Shown here in pieces: positions 4,493-43,531 of a stretch of DNA of 64,000 bases. Both the position numbers and the translations under genes were made by a program. The DNA comes from Candidatus Onthoplasma sp. (GTDB lineage Bacteria; Bacillota; Clostridia; Christensenellales; UBA1242). The DNA lies in NCBI GenBank assembly GCA_965646995.1, contig CBFGBH010000007.1, forward strand, positions 4,585 through 68,584, written 5' to 3'. Within the stretch, counting starts at the first letter, position 1, and each line of letters starts with the position of its first letter. The notes beneath the pieces were generated by a model. That model worked only from the letters and a program-made list of their open reading frames with translations. It did no database searches and was not told where the DNA came from.

Positions 4493-4517
4493 AGTGGCAT
4501 ATAAAGGAGATTTTATT

Positions 4518-5690
4518 ATGGCATGGATGGCATTTCTTAGTGTTTTAGCAATTTTAGGGATTGTTTTAGTAGGTGGAGGACTTATCGCTTTCTTGATTCA
4601 TATGATACTTGGAGCATTTGACAGCGGTAAAAATGCTGAAAATACTAATGTTAATACTTCTAAAGAAGTTATTGATTATAAAGAGTTCAAACAGTTAGAG
4701 AACGCGAACACTGTTGACAAGGAATATGATTTTGAAGCTATTGATGAGGCTAAGGCTGAGTCAGAGAAGAAACTTGCAGAGAATGATGAGACAAAAGAAG
4801 ATATATTCGACCTTGATAATACTACAGATGAAGAAGACATTGCTCAAATCGAAGAGAGACTTAAGAGTGAGAACGTAGAATCTAGCGAAGACGATGATTT
4901 GTCTGACCTTCTTGATGAGATAGCTAATGATGTGGTTGACGAAGAAAAAGATAAGATTCAGGAAGAGAATGCTCCTAAAATGGATGAAAAATTAGAGTCT
5001 TATAGTATTGATGATTATTTAAAGACAATCAACGAAGACAATACAGAAGAATCAGAAGTAGTAGAAGAGACAGAGGAAGAAGAGACTGAACTAGTGGAAA
5101 CTGAGCCTGTTGTAGTAGAAGCGAAGTCTAACGAAGAATTAGATAATGCAAATCAAGTAATAGCAGATTTAAAAGCTCAATTAGAGTCATTAAATGCACA
5201 GTTGGCATTAGCTAGAACTGCAAATAAGACTGAAGTTGCTATCGATATGACTGAGGATGAGTGTGTAGCAAGACTTGAGACATTAGAAGAGAGACTTAAG
5301 AACGCTAAGCGTGAGTACAAAATTAATGGTAAAGAGTATCGTCCACTTAAGAAAGTGATGAACGACCTAGAGCGTAATCAGACTAAACTTAGAAGAAGAG
5401 AAGCAGTAGTAGCGAAGAAGAAAGTCGCTTTATATGGTGTAAACAATTATGTTGACATTGATAAAGAGAAAGCAGAGCAACTAGCTAACGAGATAGAATT
5501 ACTTGAAGGTCTACGTCTAAGTGTTCAACACTGTGAAGAAGTTATCAACGAGAGCAAGGATAGATATCCAATCTTAGAGCATACCAATAATATTCTTGAA
5601 GAGCAGATTTCTCAGCTCGAGGCAGATATCGAGAGAACAAACATAGTTCTTCAAAAGATTAGAGACAAGAAAGGTAATGGCGAGAAATAA
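4518..5690 (+). CDS. N-terminally membrane-anchored acidic coiled-coil protein
   Basis: AAAGGAG RBS and ATG 4518. TM segment MAWMAFLSVLAILGIVLVGGGLIAFLIHMIL, then a D/E-rich stretch, then heptad-like K/E/L-rich sequence. Confidence 0.7.
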   Translation: MAWMAFLSVLAILGIVLVGGGLIAFLIHMILGAFDSGKNAENTNVNTSKEVIDYKEFKQLENANTVDKEYDFEAIDEAKAESEKKLAENDETKEDIFDLDNTTDEEDIAQIEERLKSENVESSEDDDLSDLLDEIANDVVDEEKDKIQEENAPKMDEKLESYSIDDYLKTINEDNTEESEVVEETEEEETELVETEPVVVEAKSNEELDNANQVIADLKAQLESLNAQLALARTANKTEVAIDMTEDECVARLETLEERLKNAKREYKINGKEYRPLKKVMNDLERNQTKLRRREAVVAKKKVALYGVNNYVDIDKEKAEQLANEIELLEGLRLSVQHCEEVINESKDRYPILEHTNNILEEQISQLEADIERTNIVLQKIRDKKGNGEK

Positions 5691-5768
5691 GACAAATCTA
5701 ACTAATTGCAAATTAAAAAATAATCTCTATTAGGGATTATTTTTTATATAAAGTTACATACTACTCCT

Positions 5769-6599
5769 ATGAGATTTAAAGAATATCTAAGTGAAAGAAA
5801 AAAAAGAAAGTTTAAAAAGAAATATAAAGTAGGTTTGTGTTTAAGTGGCGGTGGAGCTAGGGGATTTGCGCATTTGGGTGCATTTAAGGCATTTGAAGAA
5901 TATGGCATTACATTCGACATGGTAGCAGGTACTAGTGCAGGCAGCCTTTTCGGTGCAATTTATGCTACAGGGATTTCATATGAAGATATGTACAAATTAA
6001 CAGATGGAGTTAAAAATACTGATTTTAGGAGCGCTAAACTAGGATTTTTACCCTCTAGAATGGATAGGTTATCCGCTCTAATTAATAAAACATTGACTAT
6101 AGAGAGGATAGAAGATTTACCCATTCCACTTTATGTAGTAGCAGTGGATTTAAAGACGGGAAAAGAATTGCATTTTAATACAGGAGAGATAGCTCCAGTT
6201 GTTTGTGGTAGTTGTGCTATACCAGGAGTGTTCTTGCCAGTCAAATATAAAAATATGGTGCTAATTGATGGAGGTTCGCGCAATAATATTCCGGCAGATG
6301 TTTTAAAAATGGCCGATTGTGACTTTGTAGTAACGATTGATTGTAACTGTTCGCGTGGTGGGGGTACTAGTAGCAATAATATTTTCACTCAATTTATGAC
6401 AGCAGTAGGTATTATGATGGTCAATAATTCAGTTCAAGGTAAAAATTATAGCGATATTGTTATATGTCCAGATATGAGACGCTTTAATTCATTGAAAATT
6501 ATTGACAAAGATGCTATGATAGAAGAAGGATACAAGGCTACAATAGCTAAGATGCCGGAAATTCTTGACCTATTTCTAGGCAAAATCAAAAAAAGATAA
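5769..6599 (+). CDS. Patatin-like phospholipase
   Basis: GGGARG oxyanion motif, GTSAG nucleophile elbow and a later DGG motif. Confidence 0.8.
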   Translation: MRFKEYLSERKKRKFKKKYKVGLCLSGGGARGFAHLGAFKAFEEYGITFDMVAGTSAGSLFGAIYATGISYEDMYKLTDGVKNTDFRSAKLGFLPSRMDRLSALINKTLTIERIEDLPIPLYVVAVDLKTGKELHFNTGEIAPVVCGSCAIPGVFLPVKYKNMVLIDGGSRNNIPADVLKMADCDFVVTIDCNCSRGGGTSSNNIFTQFMTAVGIMMVNNSVQGKNYSDIVICPDMRRFNSLKIIDKDAMIEEGYKATIAKMPEILDLFLGKIKKR

Positions 6600-7627
6600 T
6601 GAAATCTACACAAAAGAAAAAATCGATAATTATAGTGAGCATTATAGCATTATTATCATTACTATGTATTTTTTCGTGTTGTATTAATCCATTATTAAAA
6701 GAGATATTAAAAAATAACTTTAATATCGTTTCGGCAAAAGGCAATGTTTTAATTCATTTTATATCAGTTGGTCATGGAGACGCTATAGCAATTAATTTGC
6801 CGGATAATAAGATAATGCTCATAGATACAGGAGACATTTCTACTGCTAGTACTGTGACTAATTATATTAGAGATAAAGTCATGCATACTCATAATAATAA
6901 GATAATAGATTATTTGGTGCTTACACATGCGGATGCAGACCATATCGGTGGAGCATTACGATTGCTCACTGAATTTGATATACAAAAAATATTTTTACCA
7001 TCGGTCAGTAAAGATACACTCACATACAATAATTTAATGTCATATATCGAGAATAATTCTTACGACACTATGATTAATACAGATGGCTATATAATAGAAA
7101 ATAATTATTACATAGAATTCTTTGGACCACTTAGCTATACCGATACGAATAATTCATGTCCTGTTATTAAATTTAGTGTCCAAGATACAAGTTTTCTATT
7201 TACAGGAGACATTTCATCCCAAGTCGAAACTGACCTAATAGATAAATATGGAATTAGGCTTGATTCAGATATACTAAAAGTCGCACATCATGGTAGCAAA
7301 TATTCTACTAGTATGGAGTTTTTAAATTTGGTCACGCCTAAATATTCGGTTATATCTTGTGGCAATCAATATGGTCATCCATCTGATATTGTGATGAATA
7401 ATCTAATGAATAGCGGTAGTGGCATTCTCCGCACAGATATAGATGGGAATATTATGTTTGTGGTGGGAGAAGAGTATGATGTGACTGTATTATCAGGGAA
7501 TTATACTATCACTAGTCTAAGTTTGGATTATAGAATTTTGATTTGCATTATAGATAGTATTCTTATGGTAAATATTGTCATTATTATTTTTAAAAAAGAT
7601 AGAAAAGTGAAGAATAAACGAAAATAA
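6599..7627 (+). CDS. Membrane-anchored metallo-beta-lactamase-fold protein (ComEC C-terminal-domain-like)
   Basis: VGHGDA, LTHADADHIGG and VAHHGS motifs, with N- and C-terminal TM segments. The start overlaps the patatin stop (ATAATGA). Confidence 0.7.
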   Translation: MKSTQKKKSIIIVSIIALLSLLCIFSCCINPLLKEILKNNFNIVSAKGNVLIHFISVGHGDAIAINLPDNKIMLIDTGDISTASTVTNYIRDKVMHTHNNKIIDYLVLTHADADHIGGALRLLTEFDIQKIFLPSVSKDTLTYNNLMSYIENNSYDTMINTDGYIIENNYYIEFFGPLSYTDTNNSCPVIKFSVQDTSFLFTGDISSQVETDLIDKYGIRLDSDILKVAHHGSKYSTSMEFLNLVTPKYSVISCGNQYGHPSDIVMNNLMNSGSGILRTDIDGNIMFVVGEEYDVTVLSGNYTITSLSLDYRILICIIDSILMVNIVIIIFKKDRKVKNKRK

Positions 7628-7819
7628 TCTACACATATTACTTATGTAAGGTTAATCCTTACGACATAGAGAGATAGTTCTATGCTCTAAAAAAACTATA
7701 ATATTTTATCTGAATTAGATTAACAATCGTTAATTAATTCATCATTTACAAAATAAAATAGTTTCGAGTGTAAACAACATCTCTCTTTTTTAATAAAAAA
7801 AGAGCTAGATAACTCTTTT

Positions 7820-8170
7820 TTATAATTCCGTATGATTGTTTTTAGCGTCTATATATTCGCGTAGTGTATGCCTACAATAAGCCAAATCACGAATAGTGCT
7901 ATAATTAATATTCTCAAAGTGTCCAGGATATTCATGAGCATAATATCTCATTTCATCGAATGATGGAGCTAGTTCGACATAAGTTACTTTTTTAAATTGT
8001 TCAGGGTCAATGTTAAATTTTTTTAATGTATCATCTGCTCCTGTAAATCTACCATTGCGTAGTGCGTCAATGAGCAGTGCATCGTGAATATCGTTTACTA
8101 TAGTACCGCCTTTACCTAAATATTTTTTGCCCATTTTAACGACTACTATCAAACCATTTATACTTGCCAT
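7820..8170 (-). CDS. Hypothetical protein
   Basis: 116-aa ORF with an AGGAGG RBS before the ATG at 8170. No motif recognised. Confidence 0.5.
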   Translation of the reverse strand: MASINGLIVVVKMGKKYLGKGGTIVNDIHDALLIDALRNGRFTGADDTLKKFNIDPEQFKKVTYVELAPSFDEMRYYAHEYPGHFENINYSTIRDLAYCRHTLREYIDAKNNHTEL

Positions 8171-8263
8171 ATGTTACCTCCTGTGATGAATAACGATAGT
8201 ATATCATAAATCTTTTATTTGTCAATAGGGAAATAAAAAAAATGTGCATGTAGCACATTTTCA

Positions 8264-8803
8264 TTATCTCTTACTAAATTGTGGAGCACGACGAGCTTTC
8301 TTGAGACCGTATTTCTTACGCTCTTTCTTTCTAGCGTCACGAGTGATGAAGCCAGCTTTCTTAAGAGTAGGGCGTAGTTCAGGTCTGAACTCTGCTAATG
8401 CTCTAGTGATACCATGACGAAGTGCACCGGCCTGACCAGCTTTACCACCGCCATAGATGTTAGCAGTGATATCTACATTGCCTTCAGTCTCAGTTAATAC
8501 TAGAGGCTGTTTAACGATAGTGATAAGAGTATCAAGGTCGAAATATTCCTTTAATTCTTCACCATTAACTTTAATGCTACCAGTACCGGTAGTTAAGCGC
8601 ACACGAGCTACAGAGCATTTTCTTCTGCCAGTGCCTAAAAATTCTTGCACTTTAGCTTTAGCTGTTTTTGGTTTACTAGCCTTAGGAGCAATAGTTTTAG
8701 TTGTAGTTACCTTTGTAGCAGTTTTAGTCTCAGTAGCTTTAGGCTCAGTTTTAGCTACCTTAGTAGTCTTTTTAACTGTCTTCTTTTCTTCTAAATCAGC
8801 CAT
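8264..8803 (-). CDS. rpsI: 30S ribosomal protein S9 with a ~50-aa Lys/Thr/Ala/Pro-rich N-terminal extension
   Basis: [12 protein letters not shown] core and [19 protein letters not shown]-terminus. The start overlaps the rplM stop. Confidence 0.95.
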
Positions 8804-9395: not shown

Positions 9396-10139
9396 TTATT
9401 CAGATAGTATTTTTTGCAGACATTTTAATGTCTGTTCGTTGATTTTAATGATATCAGACGATTTGAGTTCGTTTTCTACTTTTAAACTAATTGCGACTTT
9501 AGTGTCTTTGTCCATAGTTTTTATGTAAGTTTCTTTATATATTTTTATATCACTTGCGAATTGAGACTTGTTCTTATTGAGCTGATAATTCTCTAAAATA
9601 TGCTTCATAGAGATGAATAGATTAAAATAAGTGGATTCGGTAGTATCAATGACTTTTTCTTCAGTATGAGCATGTGTAATTTTTATTTTTTTGACATTTG
9701 CATATATCAAGACGGATATAAATGCAAATATCAGACTCAATACTACTATTTCAATGACCATTTTTTGTAAGTTAGATAGAGTAGGTAAGTTATTTTGCAG
9801 TTTATTAAAATAAATTCCGACAGCTTCGAATAAATTGTATTTTACTTCGCATATGAATATAGACTCAACGAACATTGTGGCGATTATATTTAAAATTGCA
9901 GACCACAATACGCACCAAATGAAAGCGCCGAATACACTTCGCCAAGTAGGTCGACAATAGTGTAGGAATACAGCGATAGCTATCAATATGCCTATAATTG
10001 TTACGACGAAGTCATATAGATTGTATGCATAGAGAATGGCGAATACAATACTGGCGATTAATAGTGTATGGAAACTAAGTCCGAGAGCTTTTGCTTTACT
10101 CGGCTCAATGTGGCGTTCTTTTTTCTCTTTTTTGCTCAT
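9396..10139 (-). CDS. Polytopic membrane protein, paralogue A (paired with 11005-11766)
   Basis: AAGGAG RBS and ATG 10139. Shares an ordered set of motifs with the downstream paralogue (KA.G.SF; W..V...F.WC..W...LNI; E.IFIC; YFNLF). Confidence 0.7.
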   Translation of the reverse strand: MSKKEKKERHIEPSKAKALGLSFHTLLIASIVFAILYAYNLYDFVVTIIGILIAIAVFLHYCRPTWRSVFGAFIWCVLWSAILNIIATMFVESIFICEVKYNLFEAVGIYFNKLQNNLPTLSNLQKMVIEIVVLSLIFAFISVLIYANVKKIKITHAHTEEKVIDTTESTYFNLFISMKHILENYQLNKNKSQFASDIKIYKETYIKTMDKDTKVAISLKVENELKSSDIIKINEQTLKCLQKILSE

Positions 10140-10221
10140 ATGGCACTCCTTATGAATAAAATATAGCATATATTAAAAAAAATGTCAACCCCATCATAAT
10201 ATTGACATGGTTAACATTCTG

Positions 10222-11004: not shown

Positions 11005-11766
11005 TTAGACCTGATTTTTAATCATCTTATACAATAAAGTTAAAGCATTCTTTTCAGTTGTGCCGAGATTTTCTTTATTAAGTTCGGCATCGATGATTTT
11101 AACTAATGTATCTTTCTCTTCTTGAGAGAGCTTTTCTAGATATGTAGTACGTAGCTCTTCCATATCAGCTTTTAATAGTTCTTTATCCTTATCGTTATTA
11201 AATCTCTCCAAACTACGCTTAGCGGTAGAGAATAGATTAAAATACAATAATTCTATATTAGCGTCTTGAATAGTAGTAGAAGTATTTTCAGAGTTATCTT
11301 TAGATTTTCCTTCTTTCTTTTTGTTTACCACATACGAACCGATGAAATATGCAAGCCCAATTGCAGCACAGAATACAGTGATGAGTGTAGATTCAGTGAT
11401 TATTTTTATAAATAAATTGCTAGCTTCTTCGCTGGTTTGTAATAAGGTATTGAGTAGTCCAAATGCAGTTATTAAATCGTAGCCTTCCATACATATAAAT
11501 ATACCTTCAGTGATATACACTGCTGTAATGTTCAGTAAAACCAGCCACACAGTACACCAGACGAATGATACTAAAATATTTACCCAATTAGTTTTAGTGA
11601 ATTTGTTGAAAACAATCATGGATAGCAATATACCAGCAATAGGAACTAAATATAGATAATAGCCAAAACCATATATTAAACCAAATAGTACACTAGTAGC
11701 TAAGCAAACTAAGAAACTGAATCCATATGCTTTCACTATACTAGGTTTTACATCTTTTTTATTCAT
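11005..11766 (-). CDS. Polytopic membrane protein, paralogue B
   Basis: 253 aa with the same architecture and motif order as 9396-10139: N-terminal TM bundle and a C-terminal helical soluble part. Confidence 0.7.
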   Translation of the reverse strand: MNKKDVKPSIVKAYGFSFLVCLATSVLFGLIYGFGYYLYLVPIAGILLSMIVFNKFTKTNWVNILVSFVWCTVWLVLLNITAVYITEGIFICMEGYDLITAFGLLNTLLQTSEEASNLFIKIITESTLITVFCAAIGLAYFIGSYVVNKKKEGKSKDNSENTSTTIQDANIELLYFNLFSTAKRSLERFNNDKDKELLKADMEELRTTYLEKLSQEEKDTLVKIIDAELNKENLGTTEKNALTLLYKMIKNQV

Positions 11767-11824
11767 ATTATCTCCTTATCTCTTATTAATATATTATCAA
11801 AATTTTATTAAACTGTAAAGAATA

Positions 11825-12544
11825 TTATTTATATTCGACAGATTTCAAATATAAAAATTCAGGTTTTGCAGTATGTACAGATTTAAAAGTAGTGAATAAA
11901 ATTGGTTTGATTTTTTTGAGCTCTAACTTTCCTTCGCCTATCTTAATCATAGTTCCTACGATATTACGCACCATTTTATATAAAAATCCATTCCCGGTTA
12001 TGAAGAAATATAAATATTTATCTTGTTTTTTTAGATTTGTTTTATAGATTGTGCGAATACTTGTATCTGATTCGCTCCCGCTTGCTCTAAAACCTGCGAA
12101 ATCATGTGCACCTATTAGAGTATTAATAAATTTTTTCATCTCTTTTATATTAATACTTTCATTCACTCTAAAAGCATCAGTATATAATGGTAAATCTATG
12201 CCGGATAGATACATTTTATACATGTAAGTTTTTCTTTTAGCAGAAAATCTAGCATGAATGTCGCTTTCTACTATATTTAATACACGAATAGTATTTGGAA
12301 GTATTCCATTAATAGAGTGCAAAAATTTATTAGTATCTAATTCATGCTCTATGTCAAAATGCACAGTTTGAGCGTAAGCAGAAACACCTGCGTCAGTTCT
12401 GCCACTCGCTACACAGTTAACCTTTTCTTTGGTAATTATTTCAATAGCTTTTTCGACCTGCTCCTCAATAGTGTTCGCGTTTTTCTGCTTTTGCCATCCT
12501 GCGTAATCTCTGCCGTTATAGCTAATAGTCATCAAATATCTCAT
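11825..12544 (-). CDS. truA: tRNA pseudouridine(38-40) synthase
   Basis: ISYNGRDYAGWQKQ, ASGRTDAGVSA (catalytic Asp) and FLYKMVRNIVG. Confidence 0.9.
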   Translation of the reverse strand: MRYLMTISYNGRDYAGWQKQKNANTIEEQVEKAIEIITKEKVNCVASGRTDAGVSAYAQTVHFDIEHELDTNKFLHSINGILPNTIRVLNIVESDIHARFSAKRKTYMYKMYLSGIDLPLYTDAFRVNESINIKEMKKFINTLIGAHDFAGFRASGSESDTSIRTIYKTNLKKQDKYLYFFITGNGFLYKMVRNIVGTMIKIGEGKLELKKIKPILFTTFKSVHTAKPEFLYLKSVEYK

Positions 12545-12687
12545 ATGTTTATTCTAACATATGTTAAGATAAATTTCAACTCTTATAAAAATGAAAAATT
12601 TTGATTAATAAAAAACAGATAAAAATGTTTGTAAAAAAAACTTTCACATGTTAAACTTTTTATGAATTAATACAATAAGGAGAAAGT

Positions 12688-15600
12688 ATGAGAAAGGTTA
12701 CTATAGATGGCAATTTTGCTGCGGCGAATATTGCATATATGATGAACGATGTGGCAGTGATATATCCTATTACGCCCAGCAGCCCAATGGCAGAGAATTG
12801 TGACCAGTTTAGGTTTGATAAGAAATTAAATATTTTTGATAATACATTATATCTTACCCAGATGCAGAGTGAGGCAGGAGTAGCAGGAGCTGTTCATGGC
12901 AGTTTAGTTGCAGGGGCAAAGACTACCACATTTACATCTAGTCAAGGCTTGCTACTAATGATTCCTAATATGTATAAGATAGCAGGGGAGGGACTTCCTA
13001 CAGTCTTTTATGTGGCAGCTAGAAGTGTAGCAACACATGCATTAAATATATTCTGTGACTATAGTGATATTTATGCTTGCCTTAAAACTGGATTTAATAT
13101 TATTAACTGTTCAAGTGTGCAAGAGGTCAACGACATAGCTATAGCTTGCGAGTTGGCTAGTCAGCGAAGCAAGACGCCTTTCATCTGTTTCTTTGACGGA
13201 TTTAGAACAAGCCACGAATTGTCCACTATCGAGATGACCGAATTAGACGATTTAAAGAAAATCGTTGACTATGAAGATATAAAAGAATTTAAACATACTG
13301 CTATGAATAATCACGAACCATATAGTGCAGGCACTAACCAAAACCCAGATGTATTCATGCAGAATAGAGTGCGCGCGATAGAGAAATATTCGCATGTGCT
13401 CGATGATGTGAGATTTGGCTTAAATAGACAGAGCGAAATTACAGGTAGGACTTATGACACGATAGAGTATTATGGAGACCCTAATGCGCGTGATGTGGTA
13501 GTGAGTATGGGTACCTGTGCTGATGTATTAAAACTTGCATTGAAGCAGTACAAAAGTAAAGTCGGAGTGATTAAAGTTCGTCTACTTAAACCTTTTGATG
13601 AAGAGAATTTTATAAAAAAATTACCCAAAACTACTAAAAATATCACGATTTTAGAGCGAAATCTCGATGTTAATGGAGTGGATACGCTCACTAGTTTTGT
13701 TACTCATACATTGTTTAAGTATAGATTTAATGTTAATTGTTTCACAGGTACATATGGTCTCGGTGGTAAAGAATTCACTCCGGATATGGCTATGTCGGTA
13801 TTTGATAATATGACTAGTAGGAAAAAGGAGTTTTTCACACTTGGAGTATATGACGATGTGACTCAGACGAATCTTGAGATTAAAGAACGCTACCTTGATG
13901 ATACATCGGATTTCAGTATGCGAGTTTATGGACTGGGTAGTGATGGTAGTGTCAGTTCGGTTAAGAATACTATCAAGATTTTAGGCGAAGAGACCACTAG
14001 CTATATGCAGGGGTACTTTGACTATGATTCGAAGAAATCAGGTAGTCTCACAGTATCTCATATGCGTTCGCATTTCTTGCCAATAGTAGCTCCGTTCAAT
14101 CCTAGACAGGTTGATTTAGTAGTATGCAATAATGCGGGATATATAGAGAAATATGACATTACAGAGTGTTTGAAAGATAATGGGATATTACTTCTTAATT
14201 CAAATTATGATTTTGAGACGCTAGACAAGATAATGCCCAATAAGATGAAAGAAGATTTGAATACCAAAAATATTAGACTATATTCGATAGATGCAAATCA
14301 CATAGCACACGATTGTGGATTGGGTGGCAAGATTAATACAATCATGCAGACCGCACTATTCTATGTATCTAAATTATTACCTTTCGATGTAGCTATGAAT
14401 AATATCAAATCTAGTATTGTTAAGACCTATTCTAAAAAGGGTCAGAAAATAGTAGACGCTAATCTAAAAGCTATCAATGGTATTGAGAGTAAAATTACTA
14501 ACATTAATCCTAAACGCTTCACATTGAAGTCTACACCTGTATGTAAAGTGAGACAGAGTGAGTATTATGAGAATATTATTGTGCCTACTAGCAATCAGGA
14601 GGGAGATAATATTCCTGTCAGCAGTTTTGATGTAGCTGGTCATATGCCGACCGATACTTCTAAGTTTGAGAAACGAGCTCTAGCTACTCAAATGCCTGAA
14701 TGGATTAGTGAGAAATGTATTCAATGCGGTAGGTGTACTATGATGTGTCCGCATGCAGCAATACGTCCAGTGATATTCGAAGAGAAGAAAAAGGTACCTA
14801 AAACCTTCACTAGTAGGAAAGCCTATATATGCGATGGCAACTATCGTATGCAGGTTAATACGCTAGATTGTACCGGTTGCGGAGTGTGTAGCGAAGTATG
14901 CCCAGTGAAAGCTCTCATCATGACTGAGAGTGAGAAGATTAGAGATAAGGAGATATCAAACGAAGAGTTCTTGCTCACATTGCCACAGATTACACCATTT
15001 ACTCCAAATACTGTCAAAGGTGTTCAGTTTAAACGCCCATATTTTGAATTCAGCGGAGCATGTGCAGGTTGCGGAGAGACTCCGTATATCAAGCTTGCCA
15101 CTCAGCTTTTCGGCGATAGAATGCTCATTGCAAATGCGACAGGTTGTTCATCAATCTATGGGGGGACATATCCTACTTGCCCATACTCGAAGGACAAAGA
15201 TGGCTTTGGACCTAGTTGGGCAAATTCACTATTTGAGGACAATGCAGAGTTTGGTTTTGGTATGGCAATCGCTAGACGAAATCAGAGAAAAATTTTTATA
15301 GAAAACTTAAAAACAATGAAATTTTCTAAAAAAATCCAGACTTTAGTCTCAAAATTTTTAGAAAATACAGAAAATCATGAGTTTAATAAACAATTTATTT
15401 TGTTCTTAAAAGATTATAAGCGTGGTCATGTTATTAAATTAAATGAAACTTATCTATTCGAAAATATATCACTTATTACTAGTTCAAGTATGTGGATATT
15501 TGGCGGAGATGGTTGGGCTTACGATATAGGTTTCGGCGGGCTTGACCATGTGGTAGCTAGTGGAGAGAATGTGAATATCTTAATATTAGATACCGAAGTA

Positions 15601-16140
15601 TACTCTAATACTGGTGGTCAGACGAGTAAGTCAACTCCACGGGGTGCTACGGCCAAATTTAATATGGCGGGCAAAGAGACGAAGAAAAAAGACTTAGCCA
15701 GTATGCTCATGACTTATAAAGATGTATATGTAGCAACTGTTGCAATGGGTGCAAATCCTGACCAGTGCGTTTCTGCCTTTATCGAAGCGGAGAAATATGA
15801 TGGGCCAAGTGTGATAATTGCTTACGCACCTTGCATCAATCATGGCTATGAAATGAGATATAGCCAGCAGCATTCTTTCAATTCAGTGAAGAGTGGATAT
15901 AATACGCTCTTCCGCTATAACCCGAGTGAAAAAGAGCCAATGAAGATAGATAGTTACGAACCAACTATGAACTATAGTGAATATGTTGATAGCGAGAATC
16001 GATTTGCAATTTTAGAGAAAGTGAATAAACCAAATAAGAAAAAACTTATCAAAGCGAGCGAGTGTGATGCCAAGGCTCGTCGCTCGACCTATCTAAATCA
16101 GCAAAAGAATTTAAATAAACCGAGAAAAAAGAATGATTAA
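12688..16140 (+). CDS. nifJ: Pyruvate:ferredoxin (flavodoxin) oxidoreductase
   Basis: 1150 aa. Two CxxCxxCxxxCP ferredoxin motifs (CIQCGRCTMMCP, CTGCGVCSEVCP), a GGDGWAYDIG TPP-binding motif and an N-terminal MDGN..AA..AY pattern. Confidence 0.9.
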   Translation: MRKVTIDGNFAAANIAYMMNDVAVIYPITPSSPMAENCDQFRFDKKLNIFDNTLYLTQMQSEAGVAGAVHGSLVAGAKTTTFTSSQGLLLMIPNMYKIAGEGLPTVFYVAARSVATHALNIFCDYSDIYACLKTGFNIINCSSVQEVNDIAIACELASQRSKTPFICFFDGFRTSHELSTIEMTELDDLKKIVDYEDIKEFKHTAMNNHEPYSAGTNQNPDVFMQNRVRAIEKYSHVLDDVRFGLNRQSEITGRTYDTIEYYGDPNARDVVVSMGTCADVLKLALKQYKSKVGVIKVRLLKPFDEENFIKKLPKTTKNITILERNLDVNGVDTLTSFVTHTLFKYRFNVNCFTGTYGLGGKEFTPDMAMSVFDNMTSRKKEFFTLGVYDDVTQTNLEIKERYLDDTSDFSMRVYGLGSDGSVSSVKNTIKILGEETTSYMQGYFDYDSKKSGSLTVSHMRSHFLPIVAPFNPRQVDLVVCNNAGYIEKYDITECLKDNGILLLNSNYDFETLDKIMPNKMKEDLNTKNIRLYSIDANHIAHDCGLGGKINTIMQTALFYVSKLLPFDVAMNNIKSSIVKTYSKKGQKIVDANLKAINGIESKITNINPKRFTLKSTPVCKVRQSEYYENIIVPTSNQEGDNIPVSSFDVAGHMPTDTSKFEKRALATQMPEWISEKCIQCGRCTMMCPHAAIRPVIFEEKKKVPKTFTSRKAYICDGNYRMQVNTLDCTGCGVCSEVCPVKALIMTESEKIRDKEISNEEFLLTLPQITPFTPNTVKGVQFKRPYFEFSGACAGCGETPYIKLATQLFGDRMLIANATGCSSIYGGTYPTCPYSKDKDGFGPSWANSLFEDNAEFGFGMAIARRNQRKIFIENLKTMKFSKKIQTLVSKFLENTENHEFNKQFILFLKDYKRGHVIKLNETYLFENISLITSSSMWIFGGDGWAYDIGFGGLDHVVASGENVNILILDTEVYSNTGGQTSKSTPRGATAKFNMAGKETKKKDLASMLMTYKDVYVATVAMGANPDQCVSAFIEAEKYDGPSVIIAYAPCINHGYEMRYSQQHSFNSVKSGYNTLFRYNPSEKEPMKIDSYEPTMNYSEYVDSENRFAILEKVNKPNKKKLIKASECDAKARRSTYLNQQKNLNKPRKKND

Positions 16141-16146
16141 ATTAGA

Positions 16147-16176
16147 AAATCCACTTGTACGAGTGGGATTTTTATT
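16147..16176 (+). terminator. Intrinsic terminator after nifJ
   Basis: AATCCACT-loop-AGTGGGATT followed by a T run. Confidence 0.6.
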
Positions 16177-16288
16177 TTTATTATTTATTATAATCACTAT
16201 GTTTTGATATTCTTGTAAAAATTAGTTGCAATTTGTAAAAAAATATTGCATACTCTTTTGAGTTATATTTATTTATGGAGTAATTAGT

Positions 16289-17632
16289 ATGGATTATTTA
16301 GAAATAGTGAAGATTATAATGATAGTGATTAATGCAATATTATTGATATTCCCACTCCAGTATGTATTTATTTGTTTGCCAGGAGTATTTTTAAAACCAA
16401 AGAAATTTCCCACGAGGGAGGAAAAACTTAAATACGGAATGATAATAACAGCTAGAAACGAAGAGAAGGTAATAGCTGGACTTATTGATAGCATTAAAAA
16501 ATCAGATTATCCACAGGATAAAATCTCAATTTTTGTAATTGCTCATAATTGTACTGATAGAACAGCGGAGATAGCAAGAGAGCATGGAGCTATAGTATGT
16601 GAATACAATAATCCTAATGAAAGAACTAAAGGCTATGCTCTAAAAAGAATTTTTGAATATATTAATACTAATTATGGTATAACAAATTTTGATGGTTATC
16701 ATATTTTTGATGCTGATAATATTCTAGATAAAAATTATATTACTAAACTTAATGATGCTTTTTTATATTATGATAAAAAACGACCAGTCATGGGGTTCCG
16801 TAATTCTAAAAATTTCGGTGAAAATACTCAAACTGCTATGTATGGACTTCTATATGTTTCTGAATGTAGATTGGAAGATGTTACTAGGTCGTATCTAGAT
16901 ATTTCGTCTAGATTGATAGGTTCTGGCTATGTCGTTAGTAGTGAAATGGTTAAAGATGGTTGGGATTGTGTAATTTTGTCTGACGACGTTGATTTTTCCA
17001 CAGAGCAAGTTCTCAGAGGAGAAAAAGTAATGTATTGCCATGAGGCAATGTATTATGATGAGCATCCTACGACTTTTAAAGCTATGTGGCGTCAAAGATT
17101 ACGTTGGTCAAAGGGTGTTATGGTTGTAGCGAAAAAACATTGGAATTCACTTTGGAAAAATCTATTTAGAAGCAAGAAAGCAGGCTCTTTAAAAGATAGT
17201 TCAAAATCTCCAAAGAAGATATCTACTATTGATTTGATGTTTAAATATGTGCCTATGGCATTATTAGGTTTTATAGCTTTATTTATAAATATAATATTAG
17301 TAGCAATAGCACCATTATTTGGTTGTGACCCTGTAAGCGCATGGATAGGACTACTAAATTCTTTGAGTTGGGGCATGCTTTTAGGTTATGGTATACTGAT
17401 ATTATGTCCAATAATATGTTATATACTTGAGAGAAAGACTATTGTTGGGGTTTCTTTGTGGACGAAAATTAAATCAACTTTATTATTTCCTTTATATATG
17501 TTTTTGCTAGTTCCATTACAAATTCAGGCACTATTCACTAAAAAATTTGAATGGAAACCTATAGAACATAAAAACACATCAAATTTTGATACATTTAATA
17601 AAATTGAGAATCAAACGGAGGATAAAAAATAA
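16289..17632 (+). CDS. Membrane-embedded processive family-2 glycosyltransferase (PgaC/IcaA/BcsA-like synthase)
   Basis: One N-terminal TM, catalytic motifs TARNEE, FDADN and SDDVDFS, QRLRW (17093-17107), and 4 C-terminal TM segments. Confidence 0.75.
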   Translation: MDYLEIVKIIMIVINAILLIFPLQYVFICLPGVFLKPKKFPTREEKLKYGMIITARNEEKVIAGLIDSIKKSDYPQDKISIFVIAHNCTDRTAEIAREHGAIVCEYNNPNERTKGYALKRIFEYINTNYGITNFDGYHIFDADNILDKNYITKLNDAFLYYDKKRPVMGFRNSKNFGENTQTAMYGLLYVSECRLEDVTRSYLDISSRLIGSGYVVSSEMVKDGWDCVILSDDVDFSTEQVLRGEKVMYCHEAMYYDEHPTTFKAMWRQRLRWSKGVMVVAKKHWNSLWKNLFRSKKAGSLKDSSKSPKKISTIDLMFKYVPMALLGFIALFINIILVAIAPLFGCDPVSAWIGLLNSLSWGMLLGYGILILCPIICYILERKTIVGVSLWTKIKSTLLFPLYMFLLVPLQIQALFTKKFEWKPIEHKNTSNFDTFNKIENQTEDKK

Positions 17633-19338
17633 TGAAGGTAGTAATAATATCAGGCGGTTCAGGTAATGATACTCTGATTAAAGGATTAACTAAATATGTT
17701 GATTCGGGTTTGGATATTAAAGTAATAGTCAACGCCTACGATAATGGAAAATCTACAGGTGTATGTAGAGCGATAACGAACACTTTAGGTGTATCAGATA
17801 TTAGGAAAAATCACTCCCGTATGTATGAAGCAATTTGTGCAGGGAGGGTTGGCCCTGACAAAAACTTGTTGGAATTCTACAATAATAGATATACATTCGA
17901 GAAAGGGCGCGAATTAAAGCAAGTTCTACAGCTTCTAAAGAAATGGAATTTAACAGAATATAACAAGTTTGTTAAAAACTTTTTCAAGCATGATTCTATC
18001 TCTAATTATGAATTTAAAGATTTTAGTGTGTCAAACATAGTTTATTCGGAGATGTATGAAGAATTAGGTTATGAGATTACTAATCGACATTTCTGCGATA
18101 AATTGGGCATTGATGATTTCGTGATACTAAATTCGTTTGATAATCTCTTCATTAAAGCACAGACAGAATCAGGTCATGTCATAGAAGATGAAGGGGAGAC
18201 AGTATTTTGGAATAATCCAAAAGACAAGATTGTCAAAACCCTATATGATGTAAAATCGCATTTTGGCTTAAATGAGCGTGCCGTGAATTTAGTTCTGGAT
18301 GCAGATTTAATTATTATTTCTACCGGTACATTCTGGAGTTCAATTCAGCCTACAATTGAATATTTAGACTTTTATAAAAACATCAACGAGTCAAAAGCCA
18401 AGAAAATATGGGTCATGAATAATGAAGAAGACGGAGATTCGTTTGGAGTATCTAATTTAGAATTGATTGAATATATGGCTAAGACAGGACTAGACTTGAG
18501 TCAGTTCAAAATATTAATCAACGAAGATGCTAGACCGTCTATGAAAATGAGCAATGAAAAGTACAATTTTATCAAGAAGTCTATGGGGAATACCAAAGGT
18601 AAACATGATGGTAATAAGTATGCTAAGGCAATATTACAAGTTTATTTCGGTGTAGAAGATCTAGTTAATTATGATAAAATTTTATTTGATTTTGATGACA
18701 CAATATGGACTAGGTCATTTGATAAAGATTTAGTAAAGTATTCCTTGCAGAATACCCAATTAATTAATGATTATTTGTCTAAAAAATCTGTTATTATCAG
18801 TGGCAATTCGTACAATAGTATATATAAAAAATTAGCCACATATTATGGTAATTCGCTTGAAAAATGGAAAGTTGATATATGGGCGGATGCCAATACCACA
18901 TTATATAGAAAAAATAAGGTGGTTGAGATAATTAATAGTCTGGTTATTCCAGATAGTGCTGATAAAGATATAGAGAAATTGACTAAAGATTATGGTTTAA
19001 CAATGCAAAAGATAGGAAACCCTATCGTAAACTATAAATTTAAACCATTATCAAACCTCGAGAGAATGTTACTAGTTGATTTGGTTAATAGTAAATTTAA
19101 AGGTCGGTTCAAAGCCAGTATGACAGGCAAAACCACAGTAGATATTTTACATTCTAATAATACTAAAGAGGTTGTATTCGATCATTGCGGTTTTGATAAA
19201 CTAAATACATTATTCATAGGAGATGAATTAGAGAATGGTAATGATTCTGTCATATATAAAAGATGCACCTCAGCAGTAGAAGTAAAAGATATAGTGGACA
19301 CCAATATAATATTAAAACTTTTGTTAGGAGATAAATAA
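17632..19338 (+). CDS. Fusion protein: CofD/YvcK-family (UPF0052) transferase domain plus HAD-IIB-type phosphatase domain
   Basis: N-domain: IISGGSGN, NAYDNGKSTG, ISTGTFWSSIQP, NNEEDGDSFG. From about aa 348: DFDDT, ISGNS, MTGKTTVDI, IGDELENGND. The start overlaps the upstream stop by 1 nt. Confidence 0.6.
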   Translation: MKVVIISGGSGNDTLIKGLTKYVDSGLDIKVIVNAYDNGKSTGVCRAITNTLGVSDIRKNHSRMYEAICAGRVGPDKNLLEFYNNRYTFEKGRELKQVLQLLKKWNLTEYNKFVKNFFKHDSISNYEFKDFSVSNIVYSEMYEELGYEITNRHFCDKLGIDDFVILNSFDNLFIKAQTESGHVIEDEGETVFWNNPKDKIVKTLYDVKSHFGLNERAVNLVLDADLIIISTGTFWSSIQPTIEYLDFYKNINESKAKKIWVMNNEEDGDSFGVSNLELIEYMAKTGLDLSQFKILINEDARPSMKMSNEKYNFIKKSMGNTKGKHDGNKYAKAILQVYFGVEDLVNYDKILFDFDDTIWTRSFDKDLVKYSLQNTQLINDYLSKKSVIISGNSYNSIYKKLATYYGNSLEKWKVDIWADANTTLYRKNKVVEIINSLVIPDSADKDIEKLTKDYGLTMQKIGNPIVNYKFKPLSNLERMLLVDLVNSKFKGRFKASMTGKTTVDILHSNNTKEVVFDHCGFDKLNTLFIGDELENGNDSVIYKRCTSAVEVKDIVDTNIILKLLLGDK

Positions 19339-20036
19339 TGATTTACGGCTTAATTATATGTGCAGGTAAGCAATCAAGATTTAAGACCGATTTACCAAAA
19401 GCATTAGTGGATATAAAAGGAGAGACTTTACTTGATAGAAATATTAGAGTGATGTATCCATTTTGTGACGAGATTTATACTGTGTGCTCCGTTGAGAATG
19501 CGCATTACTTTAAACAAGTCGAAAAGATAGTAATTGATTCGGGTAAAGGTAGTGGAGATGCAGTTTGGCAGGCATTGGAGAGATTAAATATTAAGAAGGG
19601 AGATACATGTTTCATAATATGGGGCGACTCTATGCAACAACCTTTGATATTCGAGAAATTAAAAAAAGAATATAATGGTATTGCTTTAATACCTACCGTT
19701 TATGAAGAACGACCTTATGTACAGATTATTCCGACTGAGAATAATAGAGTAGAAGTCCGATTTTCAAAATTTAATGAGACCATCACATCGGGTTATCACG
19801 ATTTGAGCATATTTTATTGTAATGCATATGATTTGCTTGAAGCTTTGCGTACTTTAAGGTCTATGATTATAGATTCAGAAGGTAAATACGTTCATAAACA
19901 TGGCAATGAAATGGATTTCTTAGATGCCTTTAATGAAACCGGACTTAGAGCAAATATTTGTGTACTAGAAAATTATAATGATTTCTCATTCAATACCCTC
20001 GAGGAATTAAATTCATTAATCAAACCAGAAAAATAA
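19338..20036 (+). CDS. Small nucleotidyltransferase (MobA/CofC/LicC-like NTP-transferase fold)
   Basis: N-terminus LIICAGKQSRFKTDLPKALVDIKGETLL. The start overlaps the upstream stop by 1 nt. Confidence 0.6.
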   Translation: MIYGLIICAGKQSRFKTDLPKALVDIKGETLLDRNIRVMYPFCDEIYTVCSVENAHYFKQVEKIVIDSGKGSGDAVWQALERLNIKKGDTCFIIWGDSMQQPLIFEKLKKEYNGIALIPTVYEERPYVQIIPTENNRVEVRFSKFNETITSGYHDLSIFYCNAYDLLEALRTLRSMIIDSEGKYVHKHGNEMDFLDAFNETGLRANICVLENYNDFSFNTLEELNSLIKPEK

Positions 20037-20064
20037 AGATCTCACCATTTAGGTGAGATCTTTT
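20037..20064. terminator. Bidirectional terminator between convergent genes
   Basis: 10-bp stem AGATCTCACC/GGTGAGATCT followed by TTTT. Confidence 0.75.
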
Positions 20065-20650
20065 AGTCTGCTACATAGAAGGATTGACCTTTTCTATACG
20101 CATATTTGTCATTATAGATTTTATGTAATTCGTCCGCTACATCATCTAGAGTTTTTAGTGACATATCAGCGTCTATTATGGTATGCTTACCTTCTCTATG
20201 ACCGATACGATAGTAACCATGTTTTTTAGGTTGTTTCATATACCATAATTCGTTTTGAGTGTATTTTGGGTTTGTTTTAATAGTAGGTGTTTTTATATCC
20301 CCAGTCATCATTAATTCACTAATTAAACTAGTGAGTGCAAGCTCTGAATTATTCTGACGATATTCATCAAACATGCCTAGTAGTCTATATACATTAGAGA
20401 AATTGTTATTTTTGAATTGAATAGTGTATACATCTGTATGCTTATTTTTATCATGCACACAGAAAACTATCAATGGATTAAATGGTTGAGTTTTGCCTAA
20501 TATTATTCCGCATTGCAAACTGATAGAATAGAAATTTGAGCTTAGCGGAAGATTTAAAAGTTTATTTTTAGTAATATCTTCATTGTTGTGATAGATAGTC
20601 ACTTCTCCTTTATCTAATAATTCAGTTAAAACATCTCCATGTATTATCAT
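20063..20650 (-). CDS. Hypothetical protein
   Basis: AAGGAG plus 6 nt plus ATG at 20650 (MIIHGDVL...). The ORF-track GTG at 20671 would place the RBS inside the CDS. No motif recognised. Confidence 0.6.
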   Translation of the reverse strand: MIIHGDVLTELLDKGEVTIYHNNEDITKNKLLNLPLSSNFYSISLQCGIILGKTQPFNPLIVFCVHDKNKHTDVYTIQFKNNNFSNVYRLLGMFDEYRQNNSELALTSLISELMMTGDIKTPTIKTNPKYTQNELWYMKQPKKHGYYRIGHREGKHTIIDADMSLKTLDDVADELHKIYNDKYAYRKGQSFYVAD

Positions 20651-20673
20651 AAATATCTCCTTTATATACACGC

Positions 20674-28952: not shown

Positions 28953-31900
28953 ATGGCAGATACTAAAGTGAAATTAACTAAACAATTTAATATCATTAGT
29001 GCGACAGAAGCTTCATCTAAACCACTAAGAGATATATTTATAATAGATACAAAGGGAATGGCTCATCGAACTAGTGATTTATATTTTAAAGCAGATAATA
29101 ATTCGCCTACTCGTAAAATTAAAACTTTTTCAGATTTGCAGAATGCCATTAAAGGATATATCTATACTAGTAATAATGACGCATCTCAAATTAAAATAGT
29201 AGAGCAGACTAGGGGATCGATGAAATCATATTATTCCACTCGTAATTATGAGATACCAGCATCATTTGAGTCGGATTCTGTCAATGGTGCGGACAGGACG
29301 ATTACAAGAGGAAGAACGACGACAATTTTACATGATACAGTTCCTGTGGGCATAAAGAGAACTCTAGAATTGAAACGAATACCGTCTGTATCTGATTTTG
29401 AGAAGGACGAAGCTTATTTTTCGAAAACCGAATACTTCATGGTAAAAGCGGGCGGTCGCTGGATGAGAGTTCATCGCTCAGAGATAGGTATTTATAATGG
29501 TATTGAGTTTATTAGCTTAGACCATGCTAAGAATAAAATTAAATCATTTGAACAATTAAATAATGTGGATATCAGTGTGACTCCTATAGTCCTTTCTCAT
29601 AAATTAGGTGGTTATACTCTTGAAGAGATAGGCTTAGAGTCAGCTCTTACAGTTGGACGAATATTAGACTATGAGAGAATAAATACTTACACAATGACTC
29701 GAGAGACAATTGAGAGGAAAGAAGATGGTACAGAAGCGGTTAAAGCAAATCTATCTAAGCCACTAGATAGAGAACTATCCGAGCATATATTCGTTCCGCC
29801 AGTAGACAATGCAGAGGCTACTCTGAATGTCAAGACTTTCTCATATGACGAGAATGGTAATGTAATTAAGGTAGTGCTTTCAGACGGCACTACTCGTCTA
29901 GTCTCACTAGACAAATTATTAGAAGTAGATATAGACGGTAAGGCTACAGATAAGACGATTGATTTGAGTGGTACATCCGATGAGATTAAAGATAAATTAT
30001 CTAAATTAGTAGGCAAGCAGGTGGCATTCGAATTGGATGGCAAGAAATATATATCCGCTCCACTAACTTACGAGCAGACAATAATGCGTTATACTAGCAA
30101 TAAGTATATGAACGCTACCAATGTCGCATTTGACGAGAAAGCTACTGACCCTACATATCTTCGTCTGAAAAATGGCAAATATGTAGAGGAGCAAAAAGCC
30201 ATTCGCCCAATTTGCTATGATTATGTTAAGAATGAAGATTATGAGAAATTATCTTCTTCTGAGAGGAAACGTTGTCGTGGTTTAGTTATCTTAGATAGCG
30301 GAGAAACTCGAATTGTAGATATATCAGAGTTGAGGTCTAAATATAGCAGTTTGGCTCCTAGTAGAAAGAGTATCATCACCCCATCTACCAAGGCAATCGC
30401 TGACTGTGATGTCATCCAGACTACCAATGTGGCAGGGGCAAAAACTCATAAATGTACACTGCTTAATAATCCAGATAGTACACCTGTATTTTCTACAGAA
30501 GATGAGAAAAATGATGCTATTAAATCAGCCTGCGAGACCTTCCTAGCTGGTTATAAGAGTAATGACCTTAATTCACACTATCAACTAGACGAAGTATTAG
30601 TTGATGGCAAATTTGAGCCGTTATCCGATCAAGGACAGAGATACCAAATTACAGATACATATTCTCGTCCATTCCATGCTAAAGAGAATGATGATTACAA
30701 GTATTTAAAGAAATCTCCATTAGTTATTAACAATGGTAAACTCGAGGGTGGAGTTCGATACGACACAGCCGGTGCTATTAAGGATTTTTATAAGTCATGG
30801 GGAGCTTTCTTTGGTGGTATCATGGCATTCACTTTTAGTGTGGGTGGTATTATCACAGCATTAGCAGCTCCAGTCCTACTAGGTGGTGCTATGGCAGCAC
30901 TCGTAGTATCAGCGATAGTTGGGCTTATATACCACGCGATCAAAGGTCGTAGGATGAATAGTATGTTCCGTAAGGGCAAGAAATTCGCAGATACCGCACA
31001 GTTACAGAGGGATGGCATTGAGACTGAAGTGAAAGCCGAACTGCAAGACATCCTTAACCAAGTGAAAGACCTTACTAATACTTCAGAGAAAGGTGCTTTG
31101 AGTGAAATTCAAAAAGAATTAGTAAATGTTACAACAGAAATAGAGCAATTAGAAGCAGAGCAAACTAGACTTAATAGTCTAGTCCTACACTTAGATACAG
31201 ATGTTACTAATGCTGAAACTAAGTTAAATGAAGATATAGCTATGCGAAATACATTAGATACTCAATTTACAGATCTATCAAATGAAATGTTGAGTAAAGG
31301 TTGGACAGCTGATGATTTTGCTAGAATTTTATCTTTAACAGCTGATGATTTAGATTTAGCTTTGACAAATTCCAATATCGCACTATCCACAGCCCAATCA
31401 GAGCAGGCGGAGGCTCAGAGTGACTTAGATACTATTACCACTCTACAAGGGGAATTACAGGCACTCAGTCGTGAATTTGGTGGAAAAACACCTGCTGAAT
31501 TAAGAGCGGTACTTAAAACTGTCAGAGAACCAAAAAGAAAAGTCCCAGTCAACACCGAGTCCGAATTCTTAAAAATAAAGAAAGCAAAAGTCGATGCTAA
31601 AAAGACAGCATATGAAAAATACATAGAAGAATTAGCCCGTATCAGTAGATATGAAGAATTACTCGGTCTAGGTCTAGATGGGCAGAGAGCTAATGCAGAA
31701 GCTAGATTAGCCAGTGCTAATACTTCTATGGCTACAGCTCAGGATGCTAAAGACAAGGCAGAGAATGAGCGCGAATATAGAAGAATTAAAGAAGAGTTAG
31801 ATGTTCAAGATAATGTCGTAGATAGTTCAAGAGACAGGCTACAAGAAGCAAAAAATGCAGTGTCTGATAATAATGAAAAGTTACAAGAAACAATCGCTAA

Positions 31901-35236: not shown

Positions 35237-35324
35237 TGGCGCGGAGCTAGGGATTCGAACCCCAGGAGGCTTTCACCTCGGCAGTTTTCAAGACTGCTGT
35301 ATTAGACCACTCTACCAGCTCCGC
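35237..35324 (-). tRNA. tRNA-Ser (anticodon UGA)
   Basis: GCGGAGC/GCTCCGC acceptor stem, anticodon stem GCAGT/ACTGC with loop CTTGAAA, long variable arm, GGTTCGAATCC T-loop, discriminator G and encoded CCA. Confidence 0.9.
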
Positions 35325-43350: not shown

Positions 43351-43531
43351 ATTCCCCTCCAATAAAGAATTAATCTTTAATTACTGATAGTATAATACGC
43401 AAACGAGATTTTGTCAATACCGATTTTTAAAATTTTTTCAATTTTTCACTATATTATATATTAATATTACTATTTTGATAGAAAATTAAAAAGACATAGA
43501 TGTTTTATATACTTTCTATGTCTAAATATTT

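Follow-up and report, generated by a model that had tools for sequence, protein, structure and literature searches.

The 64,000-nucleotide stretch of Candidatus Onthoplasma sp. DNA analysed here (contig CBFGBH010000007.1, positions 4,585 to 68,584; hereafter the window) carries at 16289-20036 of its forward strand three genes that, judged by their encoded domains, appear to form a capsule operon of the synthase-dependent kind that includes a so far uncharacterised donor module. According to the list of open reading frames (ORFs), g1 occupies 16289-17632 (447 amino acids, aa), g2 17632-19338 (568 aa) and g3 19338-20036 (232 aa), all on the forward strand. Both junctions read TAATG with an overlap of a single base, AAAATAATGAAG between g1 and g2 and TAAATAATGATT between g2 and g3. 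A ribosome-binding site GGAG was read from the sequence at 16277-16280 (+), 8 nt 5' of the g1 ATG. The 5' limit of the unit is a terminator-like hairpin at 16150-16167 (+), followed by the T run ATTTTTATTTTT, which closes the upstream gene for pyruvate:ferredoxin oxidoreductase (PFOR). At the 3' limit a perfect 12-bp hairpin stem (20037-20064, listed without a strand) lies between g3 and a convergent ORF of 202 aa. The scan assigned this second hairpin to the minus strand and its plus-strand T run is weak; it is a probable bidirectional terminator. g1, g2 and g3 are one translationally coupled operon between two hairpins. An earlier note on this DNA had described the same three overlapping ORFs as one operon, with coordinates that proved exact, and every motif that it quoted is present (QRLRW, DFDDT, SGN, K, GDE..GND, NAYDNGKSTG and PKAL). 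Both of the bracketing terminators that it had named exist as hairpins. An Rfam scan of the window detected neither a riboswitch upstream of g1 nor any Rfam family near the operon. The convergent 202-aa ORF (20063-20671, -) matches no Pfam or NCBIfam family and adjoins the operon in no relative but the closest one, L004 (E 5e-66).

Affinities of the three encoded proteins

The product of g1 has the hallmarks of a membrane-embedded processive synthase of glycosyltransferase family 2 (GT2). Pfam assigns it to GT2 families (4e-19), the motifs DAD141, DD232 and QRLRW (aa 269-273) are in place, and one N-terminal and about three C-terminal transmembrane segments are predicted. The earlier note had placed it with PgaC, IcaA and BcsA. 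Its description as a processive GT2 synthase with D, DxD, QxxRW and transmembrane segments was borne out, but g1 belongs to the "furanan synthase" subfamily of GT2 (the mycoplasma 'M1' cluster) and not to PgaC or BcsA proper, because it is 52% identical over its full length (E 3e-144) to the synthase BAH69904.1 of Mycoplasma fermentans PG18 and 33% identical to the beta-1,6-galactofuranan synthase CAE76760.1 of M. mycoides. NCBIfam matches to EpsU and PgaC were both far under their cutoffs. The PG18 synthase has been assigned to a capsule made of a beta-(1->6)-glucofuranose homopolymer (Gaurivaud et al., Mol Microbiol 2024, PMC11658790), and g1 is an orthologue of this glucofuranan synthase.

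The product of g2 consists of two domains whose relative placement is confidently predicted in an AlphaFold2 model based on 41 homologues (pLDDT 92.3, pTM 0.88). Its N-domain (aa 1-340; 17632-18651, +) was characterised by Pfam, by profile searches against the Protein Data Bank (PDB), by Foldseek and by invariant residues. Pfam reports the CofD family PF01933 at aa 3-299 (E 2.3e-21; 76.7 bits against a cutoff of 30). Since PF01933 also covers YvcK, this match establishes superfamily membership only. Searches of the PDB with single sequences gave weak matches and profile searches were required. A profile built from 19 diverse family members matched YvcK structures at 3e-23 to 2e-18, whereas CofD was matched at 0.006. 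The structural comparison gave the same order, with TM-scores (TMt) of 0.75-0.77 for the YvcK/UPF0052 structures 2hzb and 2o2z and of 0.60-0.64 for CofD/FbiA. NCBIfam matches to the N-domain were limited to the YvcK subfamily and a CofD-like model of the GAK system, and the CofD equivalog model gave no match to g2. Sequence profiles and predicted fold thus agree in pointing to the YvcK/GlmR branch of the CofD superfamily rather than to CofD proper.

Proteins of the YvcK/GlmR family have a role in cell-wall homeostasis and virulence, and their biochemistry is disputed. The family binds UDP-glucose and UDP-N-acetylglucosamine (UDP-GlcNAc) (PMC5482804), and purified GlmR has been reported to be a uridyltransferase dependent on D40, D41 and N198 (PMC10128056). 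Besides the fold, the N-domain of g2 has the GGxG N-terminus and the DxGxSxG and G(T/S)xxSS motifs in common with this family, and D37 in NAYDNGKSTG, invariant in the g2 family, aligns with GlmR D40. However, the N-domain scores only 69.3 bits under the YvcK/GlmR model TIGR01826, whose curated cutoff is 196, contains a helical insertion of about 60 residues and has invariant residues of its own (R86, W105, K40 and R58-K59-N60). The fusion to a HAD domain is a further difference, and the genomic context of g2 always consists of a nucleotidyltransferase and a glycosyltransferase, not of the yvcJ-yvcK-whiA arrangement of YvcK/GlmR. With the CofD/FbiA and CofC/FbiD pair, g2 and g3 share the superfamily of the N-domain and the pairing with an enzyme of NTP-transferase fold, whereas the match of the N-domain to CofD/FbiA is weak in both sequence and fold, and the module lacks an F420 context.

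The C-domain of g2 (aa ~349-568; 18676-19338, +) matches no Pfam family in the window protein and, taken alone, yields a sub-threshold GT-D-like match; it was identified by invariant motifs, predicted fold and profile search. HAD motif I reads DFDDT at 18688-18702, and D353-F-D355-D-T357, S390-G-N392, K469/K512 and G530-D-E...G536-N-D538 vary little or not at all among the 41 homologues. Searched as a profile against the PDB, the domain found the atypical alpha-phosphoglucomutase (alpha-PGM) 4bnd of Lactococcus lactis as its best match (3.6e-12), followed by a Plasmodium phosphomannomutase (PMM; 3.7e-7), human PMM1 (2e-6) and the phosphatase 1nf2 (1.5e-5). Foldseek likewise retrieved PMM2 and 4bnd at about 2e-9, with trehalose-6-phosphate phosphatase (T6PP) also among the fold matches, and the predicted fold, which includes a C2B cap, is nearest to that of PMMs. 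The motifs DxDxT, SG, K and GDx4-5GND are common to the C-domain, 4bnd, PMM1 and PMM2, and the cap motif GxT(S/T)xD aligns with GG(M/Q)ISFD of PMMs. In contrast to these enzymes, the window protein has no Pfam match here, and in the most distant homologues (clade c below) motif IV reads GNE...GxE, with the first Asp replaced by Asn. Overall, the C-domain is a HAD-IIB domain of the PMM/alpha-PGM type. The fusion of a CofD-superfamily domain to a HAD domain had been recognised correctly in the earlier note, which had, however, applied the enzyme logic of CofD to the first and taken the second for a phosphatase. Mutase activity of the C-domain is suggested by profile and fold; because mutases and phosphatases have the Asp+2 general acid in common, they are not separable by sequence.

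The product of g3 matches NTP_transf_3 in Pfam (2e-10), and its N-terminal signature AGKQSRF...PKAL fits the pattern G-x-G-K-x-x-R...PK. Its structural model (pLDDT 92.5) covers the whole pyrophosphorylase domain of GlmU (TMq 0.72-0.79, E 1e-14), followed by ST0452, IPCT, LicC, HddC and RmlA, and sequence profiles agree with this picture. CofC/FbiD is absent from the top 50 fold matches, CofC models of NCBIfam do not match g3, and all NCBIfam matches that were obtained are far under their cutoffs. g3 is therefore best described by its closest fold, as a probable GlmU-type nucleotidyltransferase of a distinct subfamily. The assignment of a nucleotidyltransferase in the earlier note stands, but not its likeness to CofC, and the enzyme logic of CofC and CofD, which it had transferred from F420 synthesis, fits neither the GlmU-like g3 nor the YvcK-like N-domain.

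Distribution of the module and the Mycoplasma fermentans counterpart

Over 500 proteins with a length of about 570 aa are homologous to the g2 fusion. A search with the N-domain among 1.84 billion representatives (E <= 1e-30, clusters at 50% identity) returned 148 clusters, most of them of 550-640 aa and some of 768-807 aa, while other clusters of 336-386 aa comprise the N-domain alone, without HAD. A g3 homologue adjoins g2 in 31 of 32 non-redundant loci, so that the co-occurrence in relatives proposed as a check by the earlier note was indeed found. Because of this adjacency and the large number of fusion homologues, the g1-g2-g3 arrangement is not due to chance. The exception is L034 of the Desulfobacteraceae, in which the nucleotidyltransferase is fused to the CofD-like domain. 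Triple fusions of YvcK-like domain, HAD and nucleotidyltransferase occur in P0462, where Pfam finds CofD and the nucleotidyltransferase, and in P0477, where Pfam finds CofD only and the other two domains were read from the sequence. In L011 and P0033, GT2 is fused to the YvcK-like and HAD domains. These fusions tie all four domains to one process.

Several of the fusion proteins merit a closer description. GT2 joined in frame to the YvcK-like and HAD protein gives products of 917 to 1007 aa in L011 (385-3408), P0033 and P0361, and L011 has a second GT2 copy downstream (4842-6254). The L034 protein (6305-8560, 751 aa), from a metagenome-assembled genome (MAG), combines a CofD/YvcK-like domain with NTP_transf_3, has no recognisable HAD domain and is a distant outlier outside Firmicutes.

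The loci fall into three clades. Clade a, with at least 50% identity to g2, comprises uncultured Christensenellaceae and other Clostridia MAGs and has the order GT2-g2-g3 as in the window. The flanks in this clade are unrelated housekeeping genes, and therefore anything special in the polymer must be encoded by g1-g2-g3. In clade b (about 47% identity, Bacilli MAGs), g2 and g3 are followed by a GT8 fused to an ABC ATPase and by an ABC permease. Clade c (about 30% identity) includes Lachnospiraceae, Oscillospiraceae, Erysipelotrichaceae and Bacilli; here the order is g3-g2 and the module is located inside polysaccharide loci of Wzx/Bac_transf type, usually beside GT8 or GT2. Such a module beside differing glycosyltransferases (GT8, GT8-ABC ATPase or GT2) is the pattern expected of a special donor with a dedicated transferase. 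Of all parts of the operon, the N-domain is conserved best across the clades: its identity to the window protein is 60-74% in clade a, 52-54% in clade b and 33-37% in clade c, compared to 38-58%, 38-40% and 22-27% for the HAD domain and 51-64%, 46-49% and 23-28% for g3. The gene glf, which encodes the flavoenzyme Glf (UDP-galactopyranose mutase), is absent from the window and from every locus with annotated neighbours.

Some neighbours of the module are unusual in themselves. In L003 (10487-12268; also in L016-L018) a 593-aa fusion of GT8 and ABC ATPase, followed by an ABC-2 permease, lies directly 3' of g2-g3, an uncommon combination of transferase and exporter. A glycyl-radical enzyme (PFL-like and Gly_radical; L028, 9798-11813) is found directly 3' of the module in a Lachnospiraceae polysaccharide locus. 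The clade c locus L022 encodes at 11798-15955 an APH and NTP_transf_3 fusion resembling LicA/LicC, a SIS-domain protein, an MptE-like protein and a CTP_transf_3 cytidylyltransferase. An HMGL-like protein is present in L021, and BLAST clustering puts a homologue at L022 15980-17572. Taken together, these genes suggest a complex heteropolysaccharide with further unusual sugars.

The presence of the module also follows the sequence of the synthase. All five sampled GT2 relatives with at least 49% identity to g1 carry it (among them P0146, P0139, P0148 and L001), whereas it is absent from all three sampled relatives with at most 47% identity (P0149, P0200 and P0217). The module thus appears to be linked to one specific GT2 subclade. 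Stand-alone GT2 paralogues with 42-47% identity to g1 are abundant in Clostridia, and in the three that were checked no Glf gene is adjacent. The FAD_oxidored gene near P0217 has no match to the GLF family.

The same genes are found in M. fermentans. Three assemblies (L036-L038), read with genetic code 4, contain a GT2, a CofD-like gene and a nucleotidyltransferase in the order of the window, with tblastn identities of 52% for the synthase, 63% for the YvcK-like domain (g2 aa 1-339) and 49% for the nucleotidyltransferase. The DAD/DD/QrlRW signature and the layout of one plus three transmembrane segments are likewise common to both synthases. The CofD-like gene (9319-10341 in L036-L038) is an intact ORF of 340 aa that keeps every invariant motif, and a 12-nt spacer with an AAGGAG site separates it from the nucleotidyltransferase gene. 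Unlike the window operon, the mycoplasma locus has no HAD domain or remnant of it, even at E = 10, and it adjoins an insertion sequence (IS) element with rve and HTH_38 genes on one side and transposase-like ORFs on the other. The cluster was apparently acquired from Clostridia, and the window copy represents its full-length form, in the lineage to which it is native. Strain PG18 has been reported to make an unbranched polymer without substituents; M. fermentans possesses pgm and galU but lacks glf, and the route to the glucofuranose donor has been stated to be unknown, with the nucleotidyltransferase named as a candidate for making it (PMC11658790).

Proposed function and competing explanations

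We propose that the operon is a self-contained system for the synthesis and export of a homopolysaccharide and the Clostridia counterpart of the M. fermentans glucofuranan locus, in which g2 and g3 would make the NDP-sugar donor and the YvcK-like step possibly yields NDP-glucofuranose. Taken as a whole, this proposal seems to us about equally likely to prove right or wrong. Most likely, g2 and g3 make a nucleotide-activated sugar donor rather than decorate a finished polymer. The HAD domain would convert hexose-6-phosphate to hexose-1-phosphate as a phosphomutase of the alpha-PGM/PMM type, and g3 would form NDP-hexose from hexose-1-phosphate and NTP. The YvcK/GlmR-like domain may act on the sugar nucleotide or a precursor of it, in a step that could yield NDP-glucofuranose without the flavoenzyme Glf, and g1 would polymerise the sugar and export the polymer across the membrane. 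A comparable logic of furanose donor and processive synthase is known from the galactan of M. mycoides, whose galactofuranose (Galf) synthase belongs to the same GT2 subfamily as g1. However, M. mycoides uses Glf, whereas the furanose donor of the window organism, if made, would come from non-flavin enzymes. The absence of HAD from M. fermentans, together with the intact CofD-like ORF there, fits a HAD step that can be replaced by a housekeeping pgm and a YvcK-like step for which there is no substitute. The replaceable HAD domain, the retention of the YvcK-like domain and the nucleotidyltransferase despite GalU and the high conservation of the N-domain suggest that it is the YvcK-like domain that performs the unusual step. 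In its boldest form, to which we hold only tentatively and which we consider possible rather than likely, the proposal makes this domain a new kind of enzyme that, together with the GlmU-like nucleotidyltransferase, yields NDP-glucofuranose without a flavin and would supply GT2 or GT8 enzymes elsewhere.

Several points weigh against this proposal. An identity of 52% is no guarantee that both synthases make the same polymer. The analysis establishes what the domains are, that the mycoplasma locus is orthologous and that the parts of the module are strictly linked or fused; we infer which polymer the window organism makes, that the HAD domain works as a mutase, what g3 takes as substrates and everything that we attribute to the YvcK-like domain. 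To our knowledge there is no chemical precedent for the conversion of a pyranose to a furanose by an enzyme of the CofD/YvcK fold, and we know of no GT8 enzymes that are furanosyltransferases. Mycoplasmas have many Cof-type phosphatases, and the loss of HAD would be equally compatible with a phosphatase role that these have taken over. In M. fermentans itself, the link between synthase and polymer was inferred from its being the sole synthase in the genome (PMC11658790). In the same study the CofD-family gene of PG18 is given as two pseudogenes (PMC11658790), a description that conflicts with the intact 340-aa ORF in three assemblies and could not be reconciled with it. Should the gene really be defunct in PG18, glucofuranan synthesis does not depend on the YvcK-like domain.

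Among the alternatives, an ordinary supply of precursors fares best; we regard it as plausible, though not likely. According to this explanation, an alpha-PGM, a GlmU-like pyrophosphorylase and a GlmR-like accessory uridyltransferase or regulator would provide UDP-, ADP- or CDP-glucose or UDP-GlcNAc for an ordinary synthase of beta-glucan or of a polymer like poly-N-acetylglucosamine, and any ring contraction would take place elsewhere. The nearest characterised relative of each domain does exactly these reactions. A canonical PGM/PMM gene lies elsewhere in the window (52853-54127), and sugar-phosphate chemistry would therefore be conventional; the many stand-alone GT2 paralogues with 42-47% identity in Clostridia likewise agree with a conventional synthase. 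Still, M. fermentans keeps the YvcK-like gene (63%) and the nucleotidyltransferase gene (49%) even though it has pgm and GalU (PMC11658790), and its polymer is furanose in an organism without glf. An ordinary GlmR-like protein would also sit poorly with an N-domain that reaches 69 of the 196 bits demanded, is marked by invariant motifs peculiar to it and contains some 60 inserted residues, and an ordinary supply would hardly explain why the module follows one specific GT2 subclade.

The earlier note had suggested a phosphodiester decoration of the exported glycan: g3 would make NDP-X, the CofD-like domain would move P-X onto hydroxyls of the glycan and HAD would trim phosphate. We consider this improbable. 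The N-domain does belong to the CofD superfamily, and the chemistry of CofD/FbiA is of this type; the Asp of NAYDNGKSTG sits at a residue needed for full GlmR activity, and in clade c the module is located in heteropolysaccharide loci, where decorating enzymes are common. However, the glucofuranan of the orthologous locus in M. fermentans has been reported as unbranched and unsubstituted (PMC11658790), though the assemblies hold an intact CofD-like ORF. The domain affinities found here (GlmU rather than CofC for g3, PMM/alpha-PGM for HAD and an N-domain much nearer to YvcK than to CofD) do not favour it either, and the fusion of GT2 to g2 and the one-base overlaps point to a cytoplasmic coupling with the donor site of the synthase and not to an exported chain.

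A two-step glycosylation through a phosphorylated intermediate has, in our estimate, a somewhat smaller chance still. Here the YvcK-like domain would transfer a phospho-sugar and HAD would strip the extra phosphate, following the example of trehalose-6-phosphate synthase/phosphatase or of the ribofuranosylation that depends on phosphoribosyl pyrophosphate and is completed by a HAD phosphatase. Fusions of a transferase to HAD-IIB are a classic architecture of such two-step pathways with a phospho-intermediate; T6PP is among the fold matches, and the two domains of g2 are modelled in a confident relative arrangement (pTM 0.88). In contrast, PMM and alpha-PGM outrank phosphatases by both sequence profile and fold, and HAD is missing in M. 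fermentans and in several representatives of 336-386 aa that have the N-domain only. Because HAD is dispensable in these lineages, this route is less likely. Finally, that g2 and g3 are simply cofD and cofC for F420 synthesis has next to no probability and was rejected, in line with the earlier note, which had argued against cofactor synthesis: apart from the name of PF01933 nothing speaks for it, whereas no CofD equivalog or CofC model matches, structures of CofD match weakly, glycosyltransferase genes always accompany the pair, both in gut Firmicutes and in a mycoplasma, and no F420 genes are located within the 64-kb window.

In the literature searched, no function has been reported for the g2/g3 module, and the sole relevant paper noticed the cluster once, in M. 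fermentans, without functional analysis (PMC11658790). The statement of the earlier note that the gene combination is not a described pathway thus holds as far as a function is concerned, but the mycoplasma counterpart had been missed. Judged by the same searches, there is no earlier description of the cluster in its full-length native form, of its occurrence across gut Firmicutes, of the fusions, of the resemblance of g2 to YvcK and PMM or of the association with GT8 and GT2 genes in other polysaccharide loci. Only one locus has so far been tied to a glucofuranose polymer; the operon would be its native version, complete with all three genes, and it confines the search for the donor step to two proteins amenable to expression and assay. 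If our proposal holds in its boldest form, there would be a second, Glf-independent route to furanose donors, and the CofD/YvcK fold would for the first time have a defined catalytic function in glycan synthesis, which would also inform the debate on the biochemistry of YvcK/GlmR. The module would then feed an unusual sugar to adjoining GT2 or GT8 enzymes in polysaccharide loci of Lachnospiraceae, Oscillospiraceae, Erysipelotrichaceae and Bacilli. It is widespread, and the relatives that could be located are nearly all uncultured gut Clostridia and Bacilli, in which surface glycans shape the interaction with the host.

Other features of the window

The window belongs to the chromosome of a Clostridia lineage that forms spores, and it encodes SpoIVA, enolase, GAPDH, Tex and aminoacyl-tRNA synthetases. 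Its closest relatives are uncultured Christensenellaceae MAGs, and L045 has the PFOR and pseudouridine synthase genes as neighbours in common with it. The Rfam scan detected one tRNA gene (35240-35324, -) and the 5' end of a 23S rRNA gene (63518-64000, +) and nothing else. The canonical mutase at 52853-54127 (-) is an alpha-D-phosphohexomutase with PGM_PMM domains I, III and IV, a conventional enzyme of this kind besides the HAD domain of g2. Two paralogous membrane proteins of ~255 aa (9396-10169, - and 11005-11766, -) are 28% identical (E 2e-34), and a 157-aa ORF without a Pfam match sits between them. An ORF of 1398 aa (28953-33149, +) has no Pfam family at E <= 1e-5. Further ORFs without a Pfam match are located at 41554-43362 (-; 602 aa), 4494-5690 (+; 398 aa) and 57962-58783 (+; 273 aa).

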